DNA of 64,000 nt from an uncultured Solirubrobacterales bacterium (GTDB lineage Bacteria; Actinomycetota; Thermoleophilia; Solirubrobacterales; 70-9): the NCBI GenBank assembly GCA_963704515.1, contig OY969913.1, positions 1,352,137 to 1,416,136 of the forward strand. The letters run 5' to 3'. Both the position numbers and the translations under genes were made by a program. Position 1 is the stretch's first letter. Every line of letters begins with the position of its first letter. Under the pieces are notes generated by a model, which was not told the origin of the DNA, did not search any database, and saw only the letters and a program-made list of their open reading frames with translations. This document shows, in pieces, positions 3,926-58,465 of this stretch.

Positions 3926-5338
3926 TCAGGCCGGTGCCGCGGCCGCGGCGGCCTCCTCGAGCTCCGCGAGCGAGCGGTCGAGGCCGGTGGCGAAGGTTTC
4001 GATGTCCTCCATCGCGTCGTAGTCGCCGAGCAGGCCGAAGCCGACGTGGCCGTTGTAGCTCATGATCGCCACCGCGAGGGCGTGGTTCTGGGGGAGGAAG
4101 GCGACCGGGAAGACCTCCTCCAGCTCGCGGCCGAGCACGTAGAGGGGGATCTGCGGACCGGGCACGTTGGTGACGATCATGTTGAAGAGGCGGGTGGAGA
4201 AGTTGATCCGCGAGGCCTGCGCCAGCAGGGTCGGCGGGGCGAAGTCGTTGAAGCGGGCGATCACTTCCGCGCCGAGCGCCTGCTTGGAGCGCTTCAGCCC
4301 CTCCATCTGCTCGCTGACCACGCGCAGGCGGCGCACCGGGTCCTCGACGTAGACGGGCAGCGGCCCGCGCATCGCCGCGATCCGGTTGCCGAGGTCGCCC
4401 CGCTCGTCGGCGGCTCGGATCGAGACCGGTACCAGCGCTCGCAGCTCCAGGCCCTCGGTGCGGATGCCGCGCGCGTGCAGCCACTCGCGCAGCGCACCGG
4501 TGACCACCGCCAGGACGACGTCGTTGACCGTGCCGCCGAAGGTGTCCTTGATCCGCTTGAAGGTCGCCAGTTCCGAGCGCGCCCAGGTGAAGCGCCGGTG
4601 CGGGCCGATCGGCTGGTTGAGCGGCACCGAGGGCGCCGGGTCGGCGAAGGCGCCGACCACCTCGCCCAGCCCCTCCACGGCCTCGCCCACGCGGTGGGCC
4701 GCTTTCTCGGGATGGCGCACCGCCTCGACCGCGCGCTCGAGCAGCTTCACCGGCGCCGCCGCCAGGTCGACCGCGCCGCGCGTGACGAGCTCGGCCGTGG
4801 TCGGCTGGCGCTCCGGCACCCAGCCGTCCTCGTTCCGCACAGGCTCGGGCACCGGCTCGAGGTCGAAGAGGACGGTGCCGATGTCGACGCCGGAGATTCC
4901 GTCGACCATCGCGTGGTGGGTCTTGGTCAGCAGCGCGAAGCGGTCGCGCTCCAGGCCCTGCACCAGCCACAGCTCCCAGAGCGGCTTGGAGCGGTCGAGC
5001 TGCTGGGAGAAGACGCGCCCGGCCAGCCGCTTCAGCTGCCGCTCGCCGCCCGGGTCGGGCAGCGCGGTGTGGCGGATGTGGTAGGTCAGGTTGAAGTTGA
5101 CGTCATCGGCCCAGAGCGGCCGCCCGGCCTCCAGTGGCGGCGTGACGAGGCGCTGGCGGAACCGCGGCACCTGGTTCAGTCGGCCGCGCACGTGCTCGAC
5201 CAGATCGACGTACTTCGGCGGCGGCCCCTCGAAGATCAGGATCGCGCCGACGTGCATGTGGCTCGCCGAGGTCTCGTTGGTGAGGAACGAGGCGTCGACG
5301 GCCGTCAGTCGGTCGAGGTGGCGTCCTTGCGTTGCCAT
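3926..5338 (-). CDS. wax ester synthase/diacylglycerol acyltransferase (WS/DGAT) family
   Basis: 470 aa with the HHAMVDG active-site motif (THHAMVDGISG) and typical WS/DGAT length. Confidence 0.85.
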   Translation of the reverse strand: MATQGRHLDRLTAVDASFLTNETSASHMHVGAILIFEGPPPKYVDLVEHVRGRLNQVPRFRQRLVTPPLEAGRPLWADDVNFNLTYHIRHTALPDPGGERQLKRLAGRVFSQQLDRSKPLWELWLVQGLERDRFALLTKTHHAMVDGISGVDIGTVLFDLEPVPEPVRNEDGWVPERQPTTAELVTRGAVDLAAAPVKLLERAVEAVRHPEKAAHRVGEAVEGLGEVVGAFADPAPSVPLNQPIGPHRRFTWARSELATFKRIKDTFGGTVNDVVLAVVTGALREWLHARGIRTEGLELRALVPVSIRAADERGDLGNRIAAMRGPLPVYVEDPVRRLRVVSEQMEGLKRSKQALGAEVIARFNDFAPPTLLAQASRINFSTRLFNMIVTNVPGPQIPLYVLGRELEEVFPVAFLPQNHALAVAIMSYNGHVGFGLLGDYDAMEDIETFATGLDRSLAELEEAAAAAAPA

Positions 5339-7352: not shown

Positions 7353-7592
7353 ATGGTGGAGATCCTCATCGCGCTGGCGCCGCTCTTCGTTCTCCTTGCG
7401 GCGCTGTTGCTCGGGCGTTACCCGGGCTGCGATGCCATCGTGCGGCTCTCCGACCGGCTCAGCGCTCGTCTGCGTCGGCGCGCAGCGCGGCCCGCGCCGC
7501 GGCCCGCGGTTCCGCACTGCCACGCACCCAGCGGCGGGCTGCTGCTCGCGTTCGGCGTCGCCACCCGGCCGCCACCGTCCCTCACCGCCTAG
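7353..7592 (+). CDS. small hypothetical membrane protein (79 aa)
   Basis: N-terminal hydrophobic helix and strong G/C third-position bias in this frame. Competing overlapping ORFs make this uncertain. Confidence 0.35.
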   Translation: MVEILIALAPLFVLLAALLLGRYPGCDAIVRLSDRLSARLRRRAARPAPRPAVPHCHAPSGGLLLAFGVATRPPPSLTA

Positions 7593-16445: not shown

Positions 16446-16527
16446 CTGCCTAAATCCTACTCAACGGGTCGGTTATGGCGGCCGTCGGGGGGGGGCGAGC
16501 TTTGGGGGGTTGGCGACTTACCTACCC

Positions 16528-17451
16528 GTGGAGGGCAGGAAAGTCGCCAACCCCGATGTGCGCATTGGCGAGATCGCGGCGCGGCAGCACGGGACGATCT
16601 CCCTTGTTCAGCTGCGTGGCCTCGGTCTCACCGACAAGGCGATCCGCGGACGCGTTGCGGCGGGACGGCTCCATCGGGTTCACCGGGGGGTCTACGCAGT
16701 CGGTCATCCGCACTTGTCGGCCGAGGGAGGCTGCTTCGCGGCGGTCTTGGCTGTCGGTCGCGGACCGCATGGCGACGGCGGCCGCATCCTGGCGCGCTGG
16801 CGGGCGGCGGTGAGCCACCGCAGTGCAGCATCGCTTTGGGGGCTGCTGCCGCTGAAGGCCGGGGCATGCGACGTGGTCGTCCTGGGGAGCGCGGGCCGGG
16901 CGCGACGTCCGGGCATCCGCGTTCACCGCACGCGCAATCTCGATGCGGCAGAGGTCACTCTCCGCACCGGGGTGCCGGTCACGACGCCGGCCCGAACGGT
17001 TGCCGACCTCCGATGCGCCGCTGGCGCCCGCTATCCGGGCGCGGTATCCGCACGCGAGTTGCGCCGGGCGATTCGCCAGGCGAACGTCCTCGGATTGCCG
17101 ATCGGCGAAGAAGATGCCAGGGACCGCACTCGCAGCGACCTCGAGGACGCATTTCTCCGGCTCTGCCGGCGCCATCGCCTGCCTCCGCCTGAGGTCAACG
17201 TTCGCATCGGCCCCTACCTCGTCGACTTCCTCTGGCGGGGAGAGCGGCTCGCGGTGGAGACCGATGCCTACCTCTACCACCGAGGCAGGCAGGCCTTTCA
17301 GGATGATCGAGCTCGGGATCTGGGGTTGAGACGCCGGGGCTTCGACGTCATCCGATTCTCCGAACGGCAGATCGAAGGGGAATCCGATCGAGTCGCCGAG
17401 GTTGTCGGCTCTGCCCTCGGGGGCCGCCGTCCGGTAAACAAGGCACGGTGA
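16528..17451 (+). CDS. AbiEi-like N-terminal domain plus DUF559 endonuclease-like domain protein
   Basis: GEIAARQHGTISLVQLRGLGLTDKAIRGRVAAGRLHRVHRGVYAVGH, with C-terminal PPPEVNVRIGPYLVDFLWRGERLAVETD...RDLGLRRRGFDVIRF. The start (GTG 16528) is uncertain. Confidence 0.65.
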   Translation: MEGRKVANPDVRIGEIAARQHGTISLVQLRGLGLTDKAIRGRVAAGRLHRVHRGVYAVGHPHLSAEGGCFAAVLAVGRGPHGDGGRILARWRAAVSHRSAASLWGLLPLKAGACDVVVLGSAGRARRPGIRVHRTRNLDAAEVTLRTGVPVTTPARTVADLRCAAGARYPGAVSARELRRAIRQANVLGLPIGEEDARDRTRSDLEDAFLRLCRRHRLPPPEVNVRIGPYLVDFLWRGERLAVETDAYLYHRGRQAFQDDRARDLGLRRRGFDVIRFSERQIEGESDRVAEVVGSALGGRRPVNKAR

Positions 17452-17510
17452 GGCGGGAAGCGGTGCTTGCGCCATAATCGGGGGACCAACCGAGGAGGCT
17501 CAACGCAGCG

Positions 17511-22801: not shown

Positions 22802-23200
22802 ATGCGGATCTCCCAGGACCTGATCGACGAGATGATCGTCCACGCACGCGCGGACCTGCCCAACGAGTGCTGTGGGATGGTCGGCGGCACCGGCGACGAG
22901 GCGAGCGCGGTGATCCCGGTGAAGAACGCGGCCGCCAGCCCACTGCGCTTCGAGATGGACCCGCAGGAGCAGTACAACGCGCTGAAGGCGATCGAAGACC
23001 AGGGCGGGGAGATGCTGGCGATCTACCACTCGCATACGAAGAGCGCCGCCTATCCGTCGCAGACCGACGTCAACCAGGCGGTCAACTGGCCCGACGCGAT
23101 CTACGTGATCGTCTCGCTCGAGGACGAGGACAATCCAAACGTGAAGGCCTACTGGCTCAAGGACCTGAAGATCGCCGATGCCGAGCTCGTCGTCGAGTAG
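22802..23200 (+). CDS. mec: JAMM/MPN+ metalloprotease (Mec-like CysO-cysteine hydrolase)
   Basis: NECCGMVGG and the YHSHTKSAAYPSQTD (HxH-x7-S-x2-D) JAMM motif. Confidence 0.85.
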   Translation: MRISQDLIDEMIVHARADLPNECCGMVGGTGDEASAVIPVKNAAASPLRFEMDPQEQYNALKAIEDQGGEMLAIYHSHTKSAAYPSQTDVNQAVNWPDAIYVIVSLEDEDNPNVKAYWLKDLKIADAELVVE

Positions 23201-23411
23201 CGGGCGCCTGGTCAAGGTCGCCTACGCGCTGAACCAGATGGAGGCCGAGATGATCCAGGGCCTGCTCGGCGAGCACGGCATCCCGAGCATGGCGCAGCGG
23301 ACCGTCGACAACCCGGAGTTCCTCGCCGCCGGGCCGCGCCAGATTCTCGTCCCCGAGGCCGCCGCCGAGGCCGCGCGCGAAGTGCTTGAGGGCGGGCCGG
23401 GCTCGGACTAG
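23178..23411 (+). CDS. small DUF2007-like protein
   Basis: VKVAYALNQMEAEMIQGLLGEHGIPS pattern. The start is uncertain; it overlaps mec by 23 nt. Confidence 0.5.
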   Translation: MPSSSSSSGRLVKVAYALNQMEAEMIQGLLGEHGIPSMAQRTVDNPEFLAAGPRQILVPEAAAEAAREVLEGGPGSD

Positions 23412-24163
23412 TCCGAGCCCGGCCGGTTGATCTCGCGCAGGTAGTCGCGCCAGGCGTCCTCGATCTCGCCGAACCGCGCCTCGAAGGCCGCTTCCAGAGT
23501 CGGCGTCGCGCCGCCCGGACGCAGCTCCAGGGCGAGGCGCTCGCAGGCGTCGGGGCCGCGCTCCAGCTCGAGCAGGTCGAAGATCGTGCCGCCGAGGATC
23601 ACCGCGTCGCGGCGCGAGGGCGGGAAGGAGGGGCGGGCGCTCTCGCGCAGCCGGCGGAGCACCGCGGCGCGGTAGAGGCCGACCTGCCGGGCGAAGTACT
23701 GGGCGCCGCCTTCGACCAGCCAGGCCCAGCGCAGGTAGCGGGCGAAGCGGCGCGGCGTCCAGGAGGGCGGCAGGGCCGGGTTGTTGGTGGCGACCACCAG
23801 CTGCGCGTAGAGCCGCTCTGCCGTGCCGCGCAGCGCCTCGCGCGAGTCGTCGCCGGCGGCGCGGCGCTCCATGTGGGCGTCGTTGAGCACGTGCAACTCG
23901 CTCGACATCGCCCAGCCGGCGAGGTAACGGCGCCCGGCCGGCGCCGCCGACCAGCGGGCCGCCGGCAGGAAGGGGTGGGCGAGCGCCAGCCAGGCGGGGT
24001 TGGTGTGGATGACAACGGTGATCTCGCCCGGCACCGACTCGAAGCGGTCCTCGAGCCGCAGCCGCAGTTCCTCCATCCGGTCCAGCGTCCGCTCCGCGAA
24101 GGCGGAGTCGCCGCTGTCGTGGCGCGCGGTGAAGCTCAGAGATTCGGTCTCAACCCAGGGCAA
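23408..24163 (-). CDS. hypothetical protein (251 aa)
   Basis: ORF-track ORF with normal amino-acid composition. No motif recognised. Confidence 0.55.
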   Translation of the reverse strand: MPWVETESLSFTARHDSGDSAFAERTLDRMEELRLRLEDRFESVPGEITVVIHTNPAWLALAHPFLPAARWSAAPAGRRYLAGWAMSSELHVLNDAHMERRAAGDDSREALRGTAERLYAQLVVATNNPALPPSWTPRRFARYLRWAWLVEGGAQYFARQVGLYRAAVLRRLRESARPSFPPSRRDAVILGGTIFDLLELERGPDACERLALELRPGGATPTLEAAFEARFGEIEDAWRDYLREINRPGSD

Positions 24164-24184
24164 CGGGCCGAGCCTACAACCAGG

Positions 24185-24953: not shown

Positions 24954-26504
24954 TCACTGAATTCCGAAGCCGCTGCCTCCGGGAGTTTCGACCCGGATCG
25001 TGTCCCCGGGCGCCAGCTCGCCCTCGGCCTTTCCGGGCAGCGGCTCGCCGCCCAGCAGGTCGCGGCCGGGCGCTCCGTCCTCGCCTCCGTCGCGGCCGCG
25101 CGGCGGGTGGCGGCGGCGCTCGGCGATCAGCGAGAAGCGCATCGGGGCGAGCGCTTCGAGCTCGCGCACGATCCCCTCGCCGCCGGCGTGGCGGCCGGCG
25201 CCGCCGCTGCCGCGGCGCACCGAGAGCTCGCGCACTCGCAGCGGGAACTCGCTCTCCAGCGCCTCGACCGGAGTGTTGAGCGTGTTGGACATGGCGACGT
25301 GGATCGCGCTCGGGCCGTCGGCGTCGGGGCAGGCGCCCTGGCCGCCGCCGAGCGTCTCGTAGTAGGTGAAGCCCTCGCCGGCCAGGGTCAGGTTGTTCAT
25401 CGTCCCTTGGCCCTGGGCGGGGACCGGGCGGGCGCCGCCGAGCGCGGCGATCGTCAGGTCGGCGACGCGGCTCGAGGTCTCGACGTTGCCGGCGGCGACC
25501 GCGGCCGGCGGGCGGGCGTTGAGCAGGCAGCCCTCCGGCGCGACGACCTCGATCGGCCGGTAGGCGCCGGCGCAGGGCGGGGCGTCGGGATCGGTGAGCA
25601 CGCGCACCGCGAAGAAGGCGGCGGACTTGGTGACCGAGAGCGGGCAGTTGAGGTTGCCCTCGACCTGCGGGTCGGTGCCGGAGAAGTCGAGCACGATCGC
25701 CTCGCCGCGAATCGTCGCCGCGACGCACACCCTCACGTCCCAGCTGTCCGTTCCGGTGCGCCTTTCCCCCGGCGTGGGTGGCAAAGGCGCACCGGAGCGG
25801 GCGTTGGCGGCCTCGAGGAAGTCCTCGGCGGTGTAGGTGCCGTCGGGCAGGGCGGCGAGCGCGGCGCGGGTGCGGCGCTCGGCGTAGGCGAGGATCTCGT
25901 CCATCCCGGCGCGCAGGCCGGCGGCGCCGTGGCGCTCGGCGAGCTCGGCGAGGCGCAGGGCGCCGATCCGGTTGGCCGCCGTCTGGGCGCGCAGGTCGGC
26001 GAGGCGCTGGTGCGGGAAGCGCATGCGCGAGGCGAGCTCGGCGAGGACGTCGGGGTCGGCGCGCGTCGGCGGGATCACGACGCCCTCTTCGTCAAGGTTG
26101 CGCGAACCGGCGGGCATGCTGCCCGGGGTCGGGCCGCCGACGTCGGCGTGATGGGCCCGGCAGGCGGCGAAGCCGATCGGATCGCCGTCGACGAAGACCG
26201 GCGAGATCAGGGTGATGTCCGGCAGGTGGGTGCCGCCGCGGTAGGGGTCGTTGAGGATCCACGAGTCGCCCGGCCGCTGCTCCTCGCCGAGCACGGCGGC
26301 GACCGCGTCGGGCATCGAGCCGAGGTGGACGGGGATGTGCTCGGCCTGCATCACCAGCTCGCCGCGCGCGTCGAAGATCGCGGTCGAGCAGTCGTGGCGC
26401 TCCTTGATGTTGGCCGAGTAGGCGGAGCGGATCAGCGCCGCGCCCATCTCGTCGCAGGCGGCGCGCAGGCCGCCGATCGTCACCTGAAGCGTTACCGGGT
26501 CCAC
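24954..26504 (-). CDS. hyuB: hydantoinase B / oxoprolinase family protein
   Basis: MDPVTLQVTIGGLRAACDEMGAALIRSAYSANIKERHDCSTAIFD. Confidence 0.85.
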   Translation of the reverse strand: MDPVTLQVTIGGLRAACDEMGAALIRSAYSANIKERHDCSTAIFDARGELVMQAEHIPVHLGSMPDAVAAVLGEEQRPGDSWILNDPYRGGTHLPDITLISPVFVDGDPIGFAACRAHHADVGGPTPGSMPAGSRNLDEEGVVIPPTRADPDVLAELASRMRFPHQRLADLRAQTAANRIGALRLAELAERHGAAGLRAGMDEILAYAERRTRAALAALPDGTYTAEDFLEAANARSGAPLPPTPGERRTGTDSWDVRVCVAATIRGEAIVLDFSGTDPQVEGNLNCPLSVTKSAAFFAVRVLTDPDAPPCAGAYRPIEVVAPEGCLLNARPPAAVAAGNVETSSRVADLTIAALGGARPVPAQGQGTMNNLTLAGEGFTYYETLGGGQGACPDADGPSAIHVAMSNTLNTPVEALESEFPLRVRELSVRRGSGGAGRHAGGEGIVRELEALAPMRFSLIAERRRHPPRGRDGGEDGAPGRDLLGGEPLPGKAEGELAPGDTIRVETPGGSGFGIQ

Positions 26505-44034: not shown

Positions 44035-44634
44035 ATGATCTTCGCCACCGCCAACAAGCACAAGCTGCGCGAGCTCTCCGAACTGCTGCCCGGCGTCGAG
44101 CTGGAGCCGCTGCCGGCCGGCGTCCGCCTGCCACCCGAGGACGGCGATTCCTTCGCCGAGATCGCGCTGGAGAAGGCGCGCGCCGCCCACGTCGCCACCG
44201 GCGAGCCGGCGATCGGCGACGACTCGGGGATCGAGGCGATCGGGCTCGGCGGCCGGCCCGGCATCCACTCGGCGCGTTACGGCGGCGATGACGCGACCGA
44301 CGAGGAGAACCTGGACAAGTTGCTGCGCGAGGTGGCCGAGGCGGGCGAGGACCGCCGCGCCGCCTACCACTGCGCCCTGGCGCTGGTCGAGGAGGACGGC
44401 GGCGAGCACCTCTTCGAGGCTCGCTGCGAGGGCCGGCTGATCGCCGAGCCGCGCGGCGAGGGCGGCTTCGGCTACGACCCGGCCTTCGTCCCCGACGACA
44501 CCGGCCCCGGAGACCCGCGCACGATGTCCGAGCTGAGCCAGGCGGAGAAGAACGCGATCAGCCACCGCGGCCACGCCGCGCGGCTGCTGGCGCGGCACCT
44601 CGGCGCCGGCGAGGCGGCGACGAGCGGGCGATGA
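44035..44634 (+). CDS. rdgB: non-canonical purine NTP pyrophosphatase (RdgB/HAM1)
   Basis: MIFATANKHKLRE...GDDSGIE...GFGYDPAF...SHRG. Confidence 0.9.
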   Translation: MIFATANKHKLRELSELLPGVELEPLPAGVRLPPEDGDSFAEIALEKARAAHVATGEPAIGDDSGIEAIGLGGRPGIHSARYGGDDATDEENLDKLLREVAEAGEDRRAAYHCALALVEEDGGEHLFEARCEGRLIAEPRGEGGFGYDPAFVPDDTGPGDPRTMSELSQAEKNAISHRGHAARLLARHLGAGEAATSGR

Positions 44635-45542
44635 TCCGCACCAAGAGCGGCGCGGCGGCGCTCTCGATCGCCTCCAACGCGTTGCTGATCGCGATCAAGC
44701 TGGCCGCCGGGGCGATCACCGGCTCGATCGCGATCGTCACCGAGGCCGTCCACTCGCTGATCGACTTGGTCGCCTCGGTGGTTGCCTTCGTCTCGGTGCG
44801 CAAGGCCGACGAGCCGGCCGACGCCGGGCACCCCTACGGCCACGAGAAGGTCGAGAGCCTGGCGGCGACGATCGAGGGCCTGCTGATCCTCGTTGGCGCC
44901 GGGATCATCGTCTACGAGGCGACCCATCGGCTGGTCGTCGGCGCCACGGTCGATTCGCTTGGCGTCGGCATCGCGGTGATGGGCTTCTCGGTGCTCGCCA
45001 ACCTCGCCGTCTCCACGGTCCTCGCCCGCCAGGCGCGCGCCCACGAATCGCCCGCCCTCGAGGGCGACGCCGCCCACCTGCGCACCGACGCGATGACCTC
45101 GGCAGGGGTGCTGGTCGGTCTCGCCGTCGTGGAGGTCACCGGCGACGCCGCCTTCGACTCGATCACCGCGCTGATCGTCGCCGGCGCGATCGTCACCGCC
45201 GGCATCAGGATCGTGCGCCGCTCCTCCGGCGTGCTGGTCGACGAAGCCCTGCCCGACGAGGAGATGGACCGGATCGAGGCGGCGATTGCCGCCGCCCGCA
45301 CCCCCGAGGTGGCTGGTTACCACAAGCTGCGCGCCCGGCGGGCCGGCAGCCGCCGCTACATCGACCTCCACGTCCAGTACCGCTCCGGCACCAGCCTCGA
45401 GCGTGCCCACGAGCTCGCCCACGCGATGCGCGACGAGATCGAGGCGTCGATCCGCGGCGCCGAAGTCCTGATCCACGCCGAGCCCGAGACCTCCCTGCGC
45501 GATCCCGATCAAGCCCGCCAGGGCCCCTTCCGCGCCGGCTGA
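44631..45542 (+). CDS. cation diffusion facilitator (CDF) family transporter
   Basis: SNALLIAIKLAAGAITGSIAIVTEAVHSLIDL..., HLRTDA, and a C-terminal cytoplasmic domain. Overlaps the rdgB stop (ATGA). Confidence 0.85.
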   Translation: MIRTKSGAAALSIASNALLIAIKLAAGAITGSIAIVTEAVHSLIDLVASVVAFVSVRKADEPADAGHPYGHEKVESLAATIEGLLILVGAGIIVYEATHRLVVGATVDSLGVGIAVMGFSVLANLAVSTVLARQARAHESPALEGDAAHLRTDAMTSAGVLVGLAVVEVTGDAAFDSITALIVAGAIVTAGIRIVRRSSGVLVDEALPDEEMDRIEAAIAAARTPEVAGYHKLRARRAGSRRYIDLHVQYRSGTSLERAHELAHAMRDEIEASIRGAEVLIHAEPETSLRDPDQARQGPFRAG

Positions 45543-45550
45543 CGCGGGGT

Positions 45551-45596
45551 CGACGGGCCGATATGTCAAGGATGCCTTGACATATCGGCCCGTCGG
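45551..45596. repeat. 46-nt palindromic element, copy 1 (21-bp stem, 3-nt loop), intergenic
   Basis: cgacgggccgatatgtcaaggatgccttgacatatcggcccgtcgg is identical to 55519-55564. It lies 9 nt after the CDF stop, between convergent genes, so it is positioned like a terminator. Confidence 0.9.
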
Positions 45597-45603
45597 CGGC
45601 GGG

Positions 45604-45753
45604 TTAGGGCGAGGGCAGCAGGTTGACCGCGGCGGCGAGGCCGACGGCGACCAGGGTGATCGCGTAACCGCTGTAGCCGTTGAAGGCGAAGGCGACCGCG
45701 GCGACCGCGCAGATGGCGACGACGGTGATCCAGGAGGCGCGGGCCAGTGACAC
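45604..45753 (-). CDS. possible small membrane protein (49 aa)
   Basis: The GTG at 45753 gives VSLARASWITVVAICAVAAVAFAFNGYSGYAITLVAVGLAAAVNLLPSP (two hydrophobic helices). The rest of track ORF 45604..46290 is Arg/Pro-rich shadow. Confidence 0.3.
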   Translation of the reverse strand: MSLARASWITVVAICAVAAVAFAFNGYSGYAITLVAVGLAAAVNLLPSP

Positions 45754-45773
45754 GGGCCGGTATTTTGGCCGAG

Positions 45774-46160
45774 ATGGCCGACGTTGGGATGAGCGGTGCG
45801 GTGAGCGGCGAGGCGGCGGAGGCCGCGCTCGCCTATCTGACCGAGATGTCGCCCGACCTGCGCGGCGCCGCGATCCTCGCCGGCGACGGCACGGTGCTGG
45901 CCGCCAGCGGCCACCCGGATCGCTGGCGCGAGGACGCCGCGACGCTGCTCGCGGTCGCCGACCGGGCCGGCGAGGGGCCGGTCGAGCGGCTCCACATCGC
46001 CACCGAGCAGGGCGAGGTCTTCGCCGTGCGCCACGCCGGCCTTGCCGCGGTGGCGGTGACCGAGCGCTTCGCGCTCGCCTCGCTGCTGCACTTCGACATG
46101 CGCTCGGTCCTGCGCGATCTGGCGGACGGGGGAGACGGGACGGATCTCGATGCCGCCTAA
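45774..46160 (+). CDS. Roadblock/LC7-like domain protein
   Basis: The ATG at 45774 gives ...ALAYLTEMSPDLRGAAILAGDGTVLAASG...VFAVRHAGLAAVAVTERFALASLL. The family call is inference from this pattern. Confidence 0.55.
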   Translation: MADVGMSGAVSGEAAEAALAYLTEMSPDLRGAAILAGDGTVLAASGHPDRWREDAATLLAVADRAGEGPVERLHIATEQGEVFAVRHAGLAAVAVTERFALASLLHFDMRSVLRDLADGGDGTDLDAA

Positions 46161-46374
46161 GCCGCACCGCGTTCTGTTCGACCGGGTCTCCGGCTACGCC
46201 GACGAGGCGGCCGCCTACATGCGCCGGCGCCGCGTCTCGCGGCGGCCCTTCGCCCGCCTCTACTACGCGGGTGGGCGGGCCAGCGACCACGCCGCCGACA
46301 CCCTCATCGGCGGCGAGCTCTTCGTCACCGCCGGGCGCCTGATCGAGGTTGCAGGGAAGCGGCCACGATCGTGA
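46150..46374 (+). CDS. small hypothetical protein (74 aa)
   Basis: Strong G/C third-position bias. Overlaps the upstream gene by 11 nt and the tldD start by GTGA. Confidence 0.4.
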   Translation: MPPKPHRVLFDRVSGYADEAAAYMRRRRVSRRPFARLYYAGGRASDHAADTLIGGELFVTAGRLIEVAGKRPRS

Positions 46375-47756
46375 CCGAGCTGATCGACCGCGAGTTGGCC
46401 GAGCGCGTTCTCGGCCGGGCGCTCGCCCACGGCGGCGAGCTCGCCGAGGTCTTCGCCGAACGCAGCGGCGGGATGACCCTGGCGATCGACGAGTCGCGGG
46501 TCGAATCGGTCCAGTCGGGCGCCGGCGAAGGCGCCGGCGTGCGCGTCGTCGAGGGCGGCACCACCTACTTCGCCCACGTCGACGGCCTCGACCCCGACGA
46601 CCTCGAGCGGGCCGCGGGCGAGGCCGCGGCCGCGCTGCGCGCCGGGCGGGCCGAGCCGCGGCCGCTGCAGGCGCGGTCCACGACCCCCTTCCCGATCGAG
46701 CAGCCGCCGGCCGAGGTCCCGGCGGAGCGCAAGGCGGCGCTGCTGCGCGAGCTCGACCAGCGCGGTCGCGGCGCCGGGCCGGAGATCGCCCAGTTCATGG
46801 CCTCCTATGCCGAGGTCCGGCGCCAGGTGACGGTCGCCAACTCCGAGGGCCTGTTCGCCGGCGACGACCGCACCCGGGTGCGGATCGGCGCCCAGGCCGT
46901 GGCCCGCCGCGGCGATCGGGTCGAGACCGGCGCCGAGACCCTCGGCGGCCACCGCGGCTTCGAGCTCTTCGACGACGACCCGGGCGCGATCGCCGCCGCC
47001 GCCGGGCGCAAGGCGCTCACCCTGCTCGACGCGGTGCCCGCCCCGGCCGGCTCGATGCCGGTCGTCGTCGGCGGCGGCTTCGGCGGCGTCCTCTTCCACG
47101 AGATGACAGGCCACGGCCTCGAGGCCGACCACGTGCAGAAGGGGGCCAGCGTCTACACCGGCAAGCTCGGCGAGGCGGTCGCCCAGCCGCTGCTCACCGC
47201 CTACGACGACGGCCGCATGCCGGGCGAGTGGGGCAGCGACGCGATTGACGACGAGGGAACGCCGACGCAGAAGACGATGGTGATCGAGGACGGCCGGCTG
47301 ACGGCCTACCTCTACGACCGGCTCACCGCGCGTCGCGCCGGGGCCGCGTCGACCGGCAACGGGCGCCGCGAGAGCTTCCGTCACCTGCCGGTGCCGCGCA
47401 TGACCAACACCTACATCGCCCCCGGCGAGCCGACGCCCGAGGAGATCATCGCCGATGTCGAGCGCGGCTTCTACGCGGTCTCCTTCGCCGGCGGCCAGGT
47501 CGACCCGGCGACCGGCGACTTCGTCTTCGGCGTCTCCGAGGGCTATCTGATCGAGGCCGGCGAGGTGACCCGGCCCTGTCGCGGTGCGACTCTGATCGGC
47601 AACTGCCTCGAGGCGCTGGCGGCGATCGACGCGGTCGGCAACGACTTCGAGATGAAGACCGGGGTCTGCGGCAAGGCGGGCCAGAAAGTCCCGGTCGGCA
47701 CCGGCCAGGGACACGTGCGCATCGCCGCGATGACGGTCGGGGGGACGGAGGTTTGA
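46371..47756 (+). CDS. tldD: TldD-family metalloprotease
   Basis: 461 aa with GGVLFHEMTGHGLEAD (HExxxH-type motif). Confidence 0.85.
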   Translation: MTELIDRELAERVLGRALAHGGELAEVFAERSGGMTLAIDESRVESVQSGAGEGAGVRVVEGGTTYFAHVDGLDPDDLERAAGEAAAALRAGRAEPRPLQARSTTPFPIEQPPAEVPAERKAALLRELDQRGRGAGPEIAQFMASYAEVRRQVTVANSEGLFAGDDRTRVRIGAQAVARRGDRVETGAETLGGHRGFELFDDDPGAIAAAAGRKALTLLDAVPAPAGSMPVVVGGGFGGVLFHEMTGHGLEADHVQKGASVYTGKLGEAVAQPLLTAYDDGRMPGEWGSDAIDDEGTPTQKTMVIEDGRLTAYLYDRLTARRAGAASTGNGRRESFRHLPVPRMTNTYIAPGEPTPEEIIADVERGFYAVSFAGGQVDPATGDFVFGVSEGYLIEAGEVTRPCRGATLIGNCLEALAAIDAVGNDFEMKTGVCGKAGQKVPVGTGQGHVRIAAMTVGGTEV

Positions 47757-49135
47757 TCGAGAGCGCGCGGCGCGCCGTCGAGGCGACGCTGGCGGCGGGC
47801 GCCTCCGACGCCGAGGCCTACGCCTCCGAGGACTCCGAGCGCGAGGTGCGCGCCCACGGCGGCGAGGTCGAGAGCCTGACCGCGGCGACCAAACGCGGGA
47901 TCGGCGTCCGCGCCTGGATCGGCCGGCGCGTCGGCTACGCCCACGGCACCGATCTCTCGCCAGCCGGAATCGCCTCCCTCGCCGAGCGCGCCGCCGGCGC
48001 CGCCCAAATCGCCGACGAGGACCCCTACGCCGCCCCCCCCGAGCTTCCGGTGCGCCTTAGCCCCGATATCGGGGGAGAAGGCGCACCGGAACCGCCCTCC
48101 GAGTTGGTGCTGACGGATGCGTCGCTCGGGGAGTGGGGGGTTGATCGGGTGGCTGAGGTCGCTCTGGCGATTGAGCGGGCCGCGCTCGGTGCCGACGATC
48201 GGGTCGCCGGGGTGGAGCAGGCGGTCTACGCCGACTCGCGGGAGCGGGTCGCGATCGTCTCCTCGCGGGGGATCGACGGTGAGTACGAGACCTCCAGCTG
48301 TTACGGCTACGCCCAGGCGCTGGCGGAGGGCGAGGGGGCGCGGGAGACGGGACTCGGCTTCGGCCTCGGCCGCGGCCCCGCCGCGCTCGACCCCGAGGCG
48401 ATCGGCCGCGAGGCGGCGCAGCGCGCCACGGCGATGATCGGCGCCGGCAAGCCGGCCTCGCGCTCCTGTCCGGTGCTGCTCGACCCGACCGTCGCCTCGA
48501 GCTTCGTCTTGCTGCTCGGCAACGCGCTTGCGGCGAGCGCCGTGCAGCGCGGCCGCTCGCCGCTCGCCGGACGCCTCGGCGAGCAGGTCGCCGGCGAGGC
48601 CTTCGTCCTCCATGACGACGGACTCGACCCCGAGGGCTTCGGCTCGGCCCCGCTCGACGGCGAGGGCGTGCCGCACCGGCGCACCGCGCTGGTCGAGGGC
48701 GGTGCCCTGCACACCTACCTCTACGACACCTACACGGCGCGCCGCGGCAGCGCCGCCTCGACCGGCAACGCGGGGCGCGGCGGCTACCGCACGCTGCCCT
48801 CGGTCTCGACCTCCAACCTGGTCGTCGCCCCGGGGACGCTGGGCACCGAGGAGCTGCTCGCCGAGGCGGGCGACGGCGTCTTCATCGACGACGTCGCCGG
48901 CCTGCACTCGGGCGTCAACCCGGTCACCGGGGTCTTCTCGGTCGGCGCTTCGGGGCGGGCGATCCGCGGCGGCGAGCTGGCCGAGCCGCTGCGCGAGTTC
49001 ACGATCGCCAGCGATCTGGTCTCGATGCTGCGAGCGGTGAGCGCGGCCGGCACCGAGGCCCGTTGGGTGCCGTTCGGCGGGTCGGTGAGCACGCCGCCCC
49101 TGCTGATCGCGGCGATGACGGTCGCCGGATCCTGA
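47753..49135 (+). CDS. pmbA: PmbA/TldE-family protein
   Basis: 460-aa TldD paralog without the HExxxH motif. TTGA overlap with tldD. Confidence 0.8.
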   Translation: MIESARRAVEATLAAGASDAEAYASEDSEREVRAHGGEVESLTAATKRGIGVRAWIGRRVGYAHGTDLSPAGIASLAERAAGAAQIADEDPYAAPPELPVRLSPDIGGEGAPEPPSELVLTDASLGEWGVDRVAEVALAIERAALGADDRVAGVEQAVYADSRERVAIVSSRGIDGEYETSSCYGYAQALAEGEGARETGLGFGLGRGPAALDPEAIGREAAQRATAMIGAGKPASRSCPVLLDPTVASSFVLLLGNALAASAVQRGRSPLAGRLGEQVAGEAFVLHDDGLDPEGFGSAPLDGEGVPHRRTALVEGGALHTYLYDTYTARRGSAASTGNAGRGGYRTLPSVSTSNLVVAPGTLGTEELLAEAGDGVFIDDVAGLHSGVNPVTGVFSVGASGRAIRGGELAEPLREFTIASDLVSMLRAVSAAGTEARWVPFGGSVSTPPLLIAAMTVAGS

Positions 49136-54753: not shown

Positions 54754-54901
54754 GGCTCGAGTCGTGGGGGCCTGGCTGGGCAGGGGTTCCGCTTAACTTT
54801 TTCGGTGTGGCGGGGGTGGGCTGGCGCCCGTTGCACCCGACGAAAAAGTACAAGACGCTCCACCCCTACCCAGTCAGACCTTCGCAGGGTTCCGGCCTTC
54901 C

Positions 54902-55702
54902 ATGACCCTGCCATTCGCTCTTTCTATTGCGATGCTTGGGGTGGTTCAGGCGGGGTTGGTGGCGTTGCCGCGGGCTCCGCCGCTGCCCGCGGGGCTGCGT
55001 GAGTTGCGCAGTCCGTGGTGGGCGGTGATTCCAGCCGGGTCGATTGTCCTCGTGGTGGCGGTGATCGAACTAAGCTCGAATGCGGCGACATGGCTCACCT
55101 ACCTGGCACTGGTTGCGGTGCCGCCGTTGGCGGCTCTGGCGCTGGCGATGCTTGTGCGTGGCGCCCGCGCGAGGTGGGCGTGGGGGGCGGTGCCGTTGTT
55201 TGCGCTTGCTTGGGTGACGCCAAGCTCGCTTGCGGGGGAGGCGGCGGCTACCGCGCTTACGGGGTTGGCTTGCGTGAGCCTTGGGTGGCTGCTCGTCTCG
55301 GCGGTGCCGGCTCGATGGGTGCGGCTTGGGGTCTATGCGATGGCGGTGGTCGACACGATCTACGTCAGCGCCAACATCCTTCAGGGCCCCAACGCCGTTC
55401 TCAATGCGGCAACTCCGGCCGCCGGCCTCCCGGCCCTCCAAACCATCCACTTCGGCTCGGCAGTCATGGGCTTCGGCGACCTCTTCATAGCCGCGGTAGT
55501 CGGCTGCCTCCTGGCGGCCGACGGGCCGATATGTCAAGGATGCCTTGACATATCGGCCCGTCGGCAGCGGATCGCGGCGGCGCTTGTGGTTGCGCTGGCG
55601 CTCGCCTTTGACCTGCTGTTCTTCGCGGTCGACGAGCTGCCGGCGACGGTGCCGGTTGCGGTCGCACTCGCCGTTGTTCAGCGAGGGCGGTCCAGGGCGT
55701 AG
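54902..55702 (+). CDS. polytopic membrane protein with D...GxGD motifs (possible presenilin/SPP-like aspartyl protease)
   Basis: 266 aa with about 8 hydrophobic segments. AMAVVDTIYV (Asp in a TM segment) and VMGFGDLFIAAVV. Palindromic element copy 2 lies in frame in the following loop. Confidence 0.6.
   Translation: MTLPFALSIAMLGVVQAGLVALPRAPPLPAGLRELRSPWWAVIPAGSIVLVVAVIELSSNAATWLTYLALVAVPPLAALALAMLVRGARARWAWGAVPLFALAWVTPSSLAGEAAATALTGLACVSLGWLLVSAVPARWVRLGVYAMAVVDTIYVSANILQGPNAVLNAATPAAGLPALQTIHFGSAVMGFGDLFIAAVVGCLLAADGPICQGCLDISARRQRIAAALVVALALAFDLLFFAVDELPATVPVAVALAVVQRGRSRA
55519..55564. repeat. 46-nt palindromic element, copy 2, inside a coding region
   Basis: Identical to 45551-45596. 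Translated in frame as ...DGPICQGCLDISARR... Confidence 0.9.
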
Positions 55703-58240: not shown

Positions 58241-58465
58241 GTGCCCTCTCTTTCCTTCGCCTGCGGAGTTAGCTGTCGGGCTCGCGCTGAAAGAGATGCG
58301 CTACGACCTGTTCGGCCGATTCGCCCCTGGAACCTGCAACGGCTCCTGCGGTTCCTCCGCTCCCGCCCGGCGGTGCGGCCGGGATTCGGCGTTGTCAGCG
58401 AGGCAGTATAGGCGCGAATCAGGCGGCGTCCACCCCGAGGGCCGCTCGGTGGCTATCATCCCGTG

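Follow-up and report, generated by a model that had tools for sequence, protein, structure and literature searches.

Identical palindromes at an intergenic and a coding site

The window, by which we mean the whole 64-kb stretch of DNA analyzed here, contains the same palindromic repeat at two places, once between convergent genes and once within a gene for a membrane protein. The repeat belongs to a family that we call F1, and the features at the two sites are as follows.

44631-45542, plus strand: cation-diffusion-facilitator (CDF) transporter gene; Pfam Cation_efflux (2.8e-45) and ZT_dimer (2.3e-19)
45551-45597, no strand: F1 copy 1, exact repeat and hairpin within a palindrome at 45549-45597; intergenic, with convergent neighbours
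45604-45756, minus strand: 3′ part of a small convergent membrane-protein gene, ending in AFAFNGYSGYAITLVAVGLAAAVNLLPSP before the stop; recognized by its GC3 and conserved C-terminus
54902-55702, plus strand: copy 2 host gene for a 266-aa polytopic membrane protein with a GFGD motif and a predicted presenilin/SPP-like fold
55519-55565, plus strand: F1 copy 2, exact repeat within a palindrome at 55514-55568; in frame as ADGPICQGCLDISARR

A sequence-only reading of the window had reported an identical 46-nt palindrome at two loci ~10 kb apart, and the repeat proved to be one nucleotide longer. The 46-mer is exact at 45551-45596 and 55519-55564, with a match in none of 100 dinucleotide-preserving shuffles, and the shared identity covers 47 nt (45551-45597 and 55519-55565) and ends there on either side. 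Folding recovers the perfect 21-bp stem and 3-nt loop that had been described; the loop is ATG and, when the flanks are included, 22 of 23 pairs are formed at copy 1 and 25 of 26 at copy 2. The DNA folding free energies of the copies' hairpins are -28.4 and -33.1 kcal/mol (z about -11.8), while the RNA of copy 1 with its flanks (91 nt) folds at -66.1 kcal/mol (z of -8.2). The core is AT-rich, as had also been noticed, with a G+C content of 41% in the 27-nt interior compared to 69.6% across the window.

F1 is a palindromic repeat family of uncultured Solirubrobacterales. Its members are 47-53 nt long and have a GC-rich outer stem (GCCGACGGGCCG pairing with CGGCCCGTCGGC) whose sequence is conserved, followed by an A/T step and a fixed-length interior with pairing arms; from CGACGGGCC to GGCCCGTCG, every member spans 45 nt. 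In terms of a MITE, the outer stem would correspond to terminal inverted repeats (TIRs). We found F1 in dozens of independent metagenome assemblies, at the coding site and elsewhere. F1 is a genuine dispersed, REP/MITE-like hairpin repeat of soil Solirubrobacterales, neither a chance similarity nor an artefact.

The intergenic copy is evidently a recent insertion

Copy 1 lies between convergent genes and just past the CDF stop, as first described, though 8 nt and not 9 separate the TGA stop codon from its start. Another 7 nt separate its end from the stop (TTA, 45604-45606) of the convergent small gene. Within the ORF at 45604-46290, GC3 reaches 0.93-0.97 in the last ~45 codons only, and the C-terminus of this small membrane protein is kept in relatives.

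The copy 1 site is empty in five relatives that retain both the CDF gene and the convergent small gene (L016, L057, L073, L060 and L083; L numbers designate loci outside the window). The two stop codons overlap (CTAG) in L016 and are 5-6 nt apart in L083 and L057, while unrelated spacers of ~30 nt and ~100 nt are present in L073 and L060, respectively. Because the site is empty in these five relatives, copy 1 is evidently a recent, lineage-specific insertion. No clear target-site duplication was found at F1 copies; no direct repeat can be told apart from an extension of the palindrome, and the relatives' empty sites at copy 1 are too diverged to define the junctions.

The label 'terminator-positioned' fits the position of copy 1 near the CDF stop, but not its sequence. 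Scanning 45300-45900 yielded no consensus terminator and no sigma-70 promoter consensus, and the sequence 3′ of the hairpin, CGGCGGGTTAGGG, has no T-run such as the U-tract of an intrinsic terminator. A TTGACA hexamer is present within the hairpin, without a matching -10 box there.

The coding copy persists while its interior turns over

Copy 2 is translated in frame and leaves its ORF unbroken, in agreement with the sequence-only reading. The host protein has no Pfam match and no NCBIfam match. Using an AlphaFold model (mean pLDDT of 64), we found that the top structural matches are presenilin/signal-peptide-peptidase structures (TM of 0.50-0.56, probability of 0.98-1.0, E of 0.05-0.15), so the earlier label of a GxGD membrane protein is plausible from the model. 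The insert is placed between the GFGD helix and the following helix. Relatives of the host protein number in the thousands in soil metagenomes, and the few taxon-named matches are Solirubrobacterales, with one Chloroflexota. In the window, the spacer between guaA and this gene contains an AT-rich imperfect inverted repeat at 54781-54838, AACTTTTTCGGTG...CACCCGACGAAAAAGT, that has CGTTGCACC and CGAAAAA in common with a palindrome located just 3′ of the gene in L026:2075-2119.

We retrieved 80 orthologous loci of the membrane gene and compared the stretch between MGFGDLF and FDLLF. About 50 of 81 membrane-gene orthologues have F1, with codon position and frame unchanged, as ADGP-x9-SARR. At 21 orthologous loci, there is a short loop without F1 (A-R-S-R-P-R-Q); L030, counted among these 21 (A-A-D-A-R-R-Q), sits among close relatives, and its short loop looks like a 33-nt deletion of the hairpin interior. 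The hairpin is lost in about 10 orthologues, and in these, as in the 21 with a short loop, the gene is intact. In seven orthologues (L042, L045, L051, L055, L058, L065 and L066), the F1 site is filled by another insert, ~20 residues long and rich in Gly and Arg, in which no long palindrome is clear. In a neighbour-joining tree of the host protein, which at ~200 residues is too weak to count gains or losses, filled and empty sites are interspersed.

The F1-bearing orthologues keep the 45-nt span every time, together with a nearly invariant outer stem. The inner 9-12 bp and the centre are wholly different between orthologues, with arms that are still complementary; examples of these interiors are GATACGTCAAGGT-g-ACCTTGACGTATC, GAAATCGGCAGCT-g-AGCTGCCGATTTC and GAAAACCCACG-atata-CGTGGGTTTTC. 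The encoded peptide is hypervariable save for ADGP...SARR.

The comparison shows the coding copy to be an old, vertically inherited, in-frame resident. A homologous insert in all orthologues, along with only two copies in existence, had been listed as evidence for ancestral coding sequence and against a mobile palindrome; such an insert is present in about 50 of 81, yet it is palindromic with the same outer stem. Because the orthologous coding segments are near-perfect palindromes with the same outer stem and other interiors, they are the same element at a greater age, and not ordinary ancestral coding sequence. The proposal of a recently mobile palindrome agrees with the empty copy 1 sites and disagrees with the age of the coding copy; the proposal that an in-frame insertion is tolerated is borne out. 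The coding copy probably has no protein-level role beyond that of a tolerated loop. The right junction of the coding element shows short tandem duplications in L043:869-930, L081:3603-3665 and L037:10672-10730 (SARRPRRQ, ARRRRQ), which suggests slippage at the GC-rich outer stem.

Hairpin pairing is probably maintained at the DNA level

We measured covariation across 49 F1 copies and 22 pairs, using 500 shuffles and slid-partner controls as comparisons. Across the 49 copies, 90.8% of cells are paired, compared to 75.1% for shuffled sequence and 23-44% for slid partners. Changes on both sides are found in 16 of the 22 pairs, and 0 of the 500 shuffles are as high. Double changes account for 145 of 539 cells in the inner 11 pairs, compared to 9 of 539 cells in the outer 11 pairs. 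Interiors also change stepwise with both arms altered together (L035 versus L040, and L048 versus L063). In coding F1 copies, every third codon position pairs with the second position of the opposite arm.

The 124 non-Watson-Crick cells comprise 25 G·T, 16 A·C and 83 others, with G·T at no more than its expected frequency. Mismatches per copy are bimodal: 20 copies have none and eight have one, while about 10 have 6-10. With wobble pairs not in excess and copies that are perfect or else decayed, the data point to maintenance of the pairing at the DNA level, where one arm is copied from the other. Arm-to-arm correction predicts such bimodality, since only a formed hairpin can be corrected. Perfect stems are documented to arise and be maintained by template switching at quasi-palindromes (PMC8794818, PMC8604942).

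Further F1 copies are few and dispersed

The sequence-only reading had proposed a search of relatives for the 46-mer, and the search found additional copies. By scanning one genome per prokaryotic species for the inner core, we found two more F1 copies in the Solirubrobacterales MAG CAVSJI01 (L001 and L008). Both are intergenic and near stop codons, with the same stem and with loops of CAG and CAT; CAT is the reverse complement of the window's loop, ATG. F1 is also present at non-orthologous loci in L023 (4740), L081 (9494) and the viral contig L092. The L092 element (7448-7498; IMG/VR, viral or proviral) reads GTCGACGGGCCGGGGTTCAC...GTGAACGCCCGGCCCGTCGAC and has a different interior but the outer stem and the 45-nt length of F1. 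The L023 element (4737-4787) may be translated in the same frame (GADGPICADIERFSARRPGVLLFCLLAG...), where it would form the N-terminus of an ORF, right before a signal-peptide-like hydrophobic stretch.

F1 copies of one genome have a common inner stem, as in the window pair, the L001/L008 pair and the L081 pair, and partly in the L023 pair. Consequently, kinship is recent between the coding and dispersed copies of any one genome, whereas orthologous copies have diverged from genome to genome. Four of five intergenic copies begin 3-12 nt past a stop codon. The flanks of six non-orthologous copies have only palindrome-extending G/C bases in common, and no GT(A/G)G-type tetranucleotide. An F1 covariance model found no further copies over 726 kb, which corresponds to roughly one extra copy per 230 kb.

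F1 matched no Rfam 15 family at gathering or permissive thresholds, and its sub-threshold miRNA-like matches reflect hairpin shape only. The sole Rfam match in the window is a c-di-AMP (ydaO/yuaA) riboswitch at 58243-58401 (minus strand; 80.6 bits, E of 3.9e-17). The window's genome is contained in no public sequencing run; the best of these has only 9% of the sampled words. A GC3-based classifier for hairpins inside a CDS was dropped after it misclassified the known coding F1 site.

Other palindrome families have the same architecture

A scan for long hairpins in the sampled sequence identified several families of constant length, each with a conserved, GC-rich stem on the outside, then an A/T step, a variable stem further in and an AT-rich centre. 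Two copies of one such family, F2 (TTCCGGTGCGCCTT-N19-AAGGCGCACCGGAA), are located in the window, in different reading frames and with different interiors.

48045-48091, plus strand: F2, in frame in a PmbA/TldD-like gene (47753-49135), reading LPVRLSPDIGGEGAPE
25750-25798, minus strand: F2, in frame in a hydantoinase-B/caprolactamase-beta-like gene (24954-26504, minus strand), reading SGAPLPPTPGERRTG

Among orthologues of the PmbA-like gene, eight (two of them duplicate contigs) have F2 with other interiors, about ten are without it and three have an unrecognized insert. The hydantoinase-B-like gene has a GC3 of 0.95, an NCBIfam match and a 16-residue insertion relative to 7hk5.

The spacer between guaA and the membrane gene is occupied by F2 in some relatives and by a third family, F3 (GCGAACTGCATCAAnTTCT...AGAAnTTGATGCAGTTCGC), in others; it looks to be either a regulatory site or a palindrome hot spot. 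In other lineages, the membrane gene itself has a second in-frame site (residues about 82-98), where 17-19 residues are added by F4-like elements that are AT-rich at the centre (for example, CATATG or TATATG). The loci are as follows.

F2 in the guaA-to-membrane-gene spacer: L028/L029:9929-9989, L046:2085-2131, L069:1722-1764, L079:142-184, L084:518-564
F3 in the guaA-to-membrane-gene spacer: L014:172-222, L018:629-681, L019:638-688, L059:669-721, L062:9932-9982, L080:163-217
F4-like elements at the second coding site: L028/29:10246-10292, L038:10253-10303, L042:380-428, L046:2396-2440, L050:10248-10296, L052:10246-10298, L055:10246-10298, L056:668-712, L070:3351-3401, L084:827-871

The F2 outer stem is kept in two reading frames and in intergenic copies; therefore, outer-stem conservation is not a by-product of coding. 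Such conservation points to possible recognition in trans.

Two other palindromes were observed in the window. A 49-nt palindrome of like build (GGGGTTGGCGACTT...AAGTCGCCAACCCC) is located at 16506-16554, within ~1 kb (16461-17477) that has no clear GC3 coding signal. A 34-nt palindrome at 23393-23426 is centred on CTAG, where the ORFs 23169-23411 (plus strand) and 23408-24184 (minus strand) meet end to end.

F1 compared to known palindromic elements

REPINs have conserved ends and a fixed-length spacer, and compensatory changes are common in them (PMC3116915). F1 resembles them in having two conserved inverted ends, a kept spacer length and pairing, a covarying inner stem, a genome-specific 'master' sequence with long vertical persistence, and intergenic copies near gene ends. 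Compared to the 71-nt end-to-end distance in GI REPINs, F1 measures 47-53 nt. REPs are extragenic and number tens to hundreds of copies, whereas F1 has about one extra copy per 230 kb, and three of the four F1/F2 copies in the window are inside genes and translated. REPs also have a conserved GT(A/G)G-type tetranucleotide beside the hairpin, while F1 has no GTAG-type flank. A REP-RAYT likeness is that hairpins identical to the inner one of the window's F1 copies stand on either side of Y1 transposase genes in CPR contigs; a difference is that no RAYT was seen in the window or in the sampled Solirubrobacterales loci.

Rickettsia palindromic elements (RPEs), like some other MITEs, are found in frame in unrelated housekeeping genes, where the added peptide is tolerated (PMC10969869). 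Similarly, F1 and F2 are in frame in presenilin-like protease, PmbA-like and hydantoinase-B-like genes. RPEs are ~100-150 bp long, AT-rich and alphaproteobacterial, with a family-conserved peptide, whereas F1 has a third of their size, is GC-clamped and actinobacterial, and encodes a hypervariable interior peptide.

The TRIT of Mycobacterium is a sequence-conserved, bidirectional palindromic hairpin by stop codons that partly overlaps coding ends (PMC3152330). Compared by description, F1 is likewise a conserved hairpin of an actinobacterial lineage next to stop codons, but TRITs are reported to be restricted to Mycobacterium, reach 147 copies in one genome and occupy gene termini only, with no internal in-frame sites. 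TRIT is absent from the Rfam matches in the window. Because several defining features of each fail, we do not assign F1 to REPs, RPEs, TRITs or terminators.

F1 also recalls PATEs (palindrome-associated transposable elements), which are short, gene-less and non-autonomous derivatives of IS200/IS605 with hairpin ends; Y1 transposases supplied in trans would move them as single-stranded DNA and leave no duplication of the target. In PATEs, which usually exceed 100 bp, the left end differs from the right and cleavage sites are asymmetric, whereas F1 is a near-perfect single palindrome. We set aside integron attC, dif/Xer, parS and telomere-resolvase sites, whose consensus or genomic arrangement, to our knowledge, does not fit.

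Quasi-palindrome template switching accounts for perfect arms, for changes that alter both arms in one step and for an inverted loop (PMC8794818, PMC8604942). Yet it describes a kind of mutation, not a family of elements, and by itself leaves dispersal and conserved outer stems unexplained.

The inner hairpin recurs beside Y1 transposase genes

In the scan of one genome per species, the window's inner hairpin (ATATGTCAAGG/CCTTGACATAT) was found again in nine AT-rich genomes of Clostridia and CPR; a rough back-of-envelope estimate for such non-Solirubrobacterales matches by chance is ~0.1. In three CPR contigs, the palindrome ATGTCAAGG-N5-CCTTGACAT is present on both sides of PF01797 (Y1_Tnp, above threshold) genes, which are IS200/RAYT-like.

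L009:3685-4364: CPR Y1 gene with flanking palindromes
L011:1107-1897: CPR Y1 gene with flanking palindromes
L093:1957-2692: CPR Y1 gene with flanking palindromes

Such a layout is that of REP-RAYT or IS200. Relatives of the CPR transposase carry other hairpins, and all taxon-named matches among homologues of the L011 Y1 protein are CPR. In Clostridia, solo copies of the CPR-type palindrome (L003, L007 and L010) overlap TTGACA-N17-TATAAT promoter-like sequences.

A motif regex and phmmer found no Y1/HUH transposase in the 64-kb window or in the sampled Solirubrobacterales loci, which is weak evidence of absence because each genome was sampled by only ~10-20 kb. The match to the CPR hairpins could be a coincidence; it falls on the inner stem, which varies within F1, and loop lengths differ (3 nt in the window, 5 nt in CPR).

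A mobile hairpin element and its alternatives

We interpret F1 as a small, low-copy, non-autonomous REPIN/PATE-like hairpin element of Solirubrobacterales, a reading that we hold to be about as probable as not. The comparisons show that F1 long ago entered the gene of a presenilin-like membrane protease, at a cytoplasmic loop and in a frame free of stops, and has descended vertically there, and that the same 47 nt was lately placed between the CDF gene and the convergent small gene in the window's lineage. The element would be moved and kept as a DNA hairpin, with the outer stem as the part recognized by a trans-acting enzyme. The likeliest candidate is an HUH/Y1 transposase of the IS200/RAYT type, with single-stranded DNA as its substrate; an HUH single-strand transposase would be the most economical mover on the indirect evidence that the same inner hairpin flanks Y1 genes in CPR. 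Strict Watson-Crick arms would arise by arm-to-arm copying, with template switching at quasi-palindromes during replication as the likely route, and such copying would allow the interior to drift fast while staying perfect. What speaks against the REPIN/PATE-like reading is that a coding copy passed on by vertical descent would not obviously need to retain the sequence that a transposase recognizes. Retention of the outer stem in the coding copy leaves room for a host function or for a palindrome-coupled coding constraint.

Alternatively, the coding copies themselves, and not the family alone, could be selected as perfect Watson-Crick DNA hairpins of fixed outer stem, either as domesticated sites with a host role, for example recognized by a vertically inherited HUH enzyme, or as a template-switch engine of hypervariable loops. 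Palindrome families of 43-53 nt would then colonize the loops of conserved proteins, as in the host protein, which itself diverges to about 60% identity. We found no comparable class of coding DNA hairpin in the literature searched, and we consider selection of this kind unlikely.

A further alternative dispenses with a dedicated enzyme. F1 elements could be self-maintaining template-switch palindromes that spread rarely by illegitimate recombination or gene conversion, with the outer stem kept by a coding constraint that is passed on through arm-to-arm copying. Perfect-or-decayed copies and Watson-Crick arms without wobble enrichment are the expected feedback of hairpin-dependent correction. 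The joint stepwise changes of both arms (L035/L040 and L048/L063), the inverted loop (ATG versus CAT) and the low copy number are also consistent with it, and the template-switch mechanism is documented (PMC8794818, PMC8604942). However, it leaves unexplained how the same 47 nt came to occupy, 10 kb away, a previously empty site among closely packed genes, why family-specific outer stems (F1 to F4) are shared by coding frames and intergenic copies, and why the length of a family is fixed. F3, upstream of the membrane gene, hints at outer-stem conservation without a coding constraint. An enzyme-free origin is a minority possibility that we do not favour.

A host-functional RNA hairpin would instead act at 3′ ends as a U-tract-independent, TRIT-like terminator or 3′-exonuclease block and, within the gene, as an RNase III site, pause site or attenuator tuning membrane-protease expression. 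The fold is very stable, four of the five intergenic F1 copies follow a stop codon by 3-12 nt, many variants nest an A-tract, GC hairpin and T-tract like a bidirectional terminator, and the hairpin persists at the coding site over deep divergence. For RNase III, a hairpin of at least 22 bp is long enough. Yet the full hairpin is followed by no T-run and no consensus terminator, G·U is not enriched, the strands show no asymmetry of G·T over A·C (25 versus 16), and no Rfam family matches. A structure-only role also needs no conserved outer-stem sequence, and the gene is intact in the ~10 hairpin-lost and 21 short-loop orthologues. TRITs offer an actinobacterial precedent for sequence-conserved palindromes at gene termini (PMC3152330), but the RNA explanation appears doubtful overall.

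We regard it as quite improbable that F1 is a double-stranded DNA site for a dimeric regulator or chromosome-organizing factor with two half-sites at a fixed spacing. The conserved GCCGACGGGCC and GGCCCGTCGGC with their invariant 27-bp spacing fit such a site, as does the low copy number, and parS-type sites can be located within genes. Half-sites nevertheless need no self-complementary interior, which F1 has; one architecture is common to several unrelated families; and copy 1 is a newly inserted element and not a conserved site. Lastly, chance similarity or an assembly artefact, for which the metagenome-type assembly of the window gives only general caution, is refuted by the shuffles (0 of 100) and the dozens of independent assemblies and has next to no probability.

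Implications

As a REPIN/PATE-like element, F1 would extend REPIN/RPE-type biology to an uncultured, abundant order of soil actinobacteria, and it bears on whether elements inside genes can be maintained by HUH transposases. F1-type elements inflate the apparent loop variability in protein alignments, and their identical 47-mers can confuse assembly and binning. A single orthologous coding site in about 80 genomes, where the hairpin is kept perfect while its sequence and encoded peptide turn over, is an unusually clean natural experiment that allows a direct test of whether 'compensatory' hairpin evolution proceeds by selection on structure or by arm-to-arm copying.
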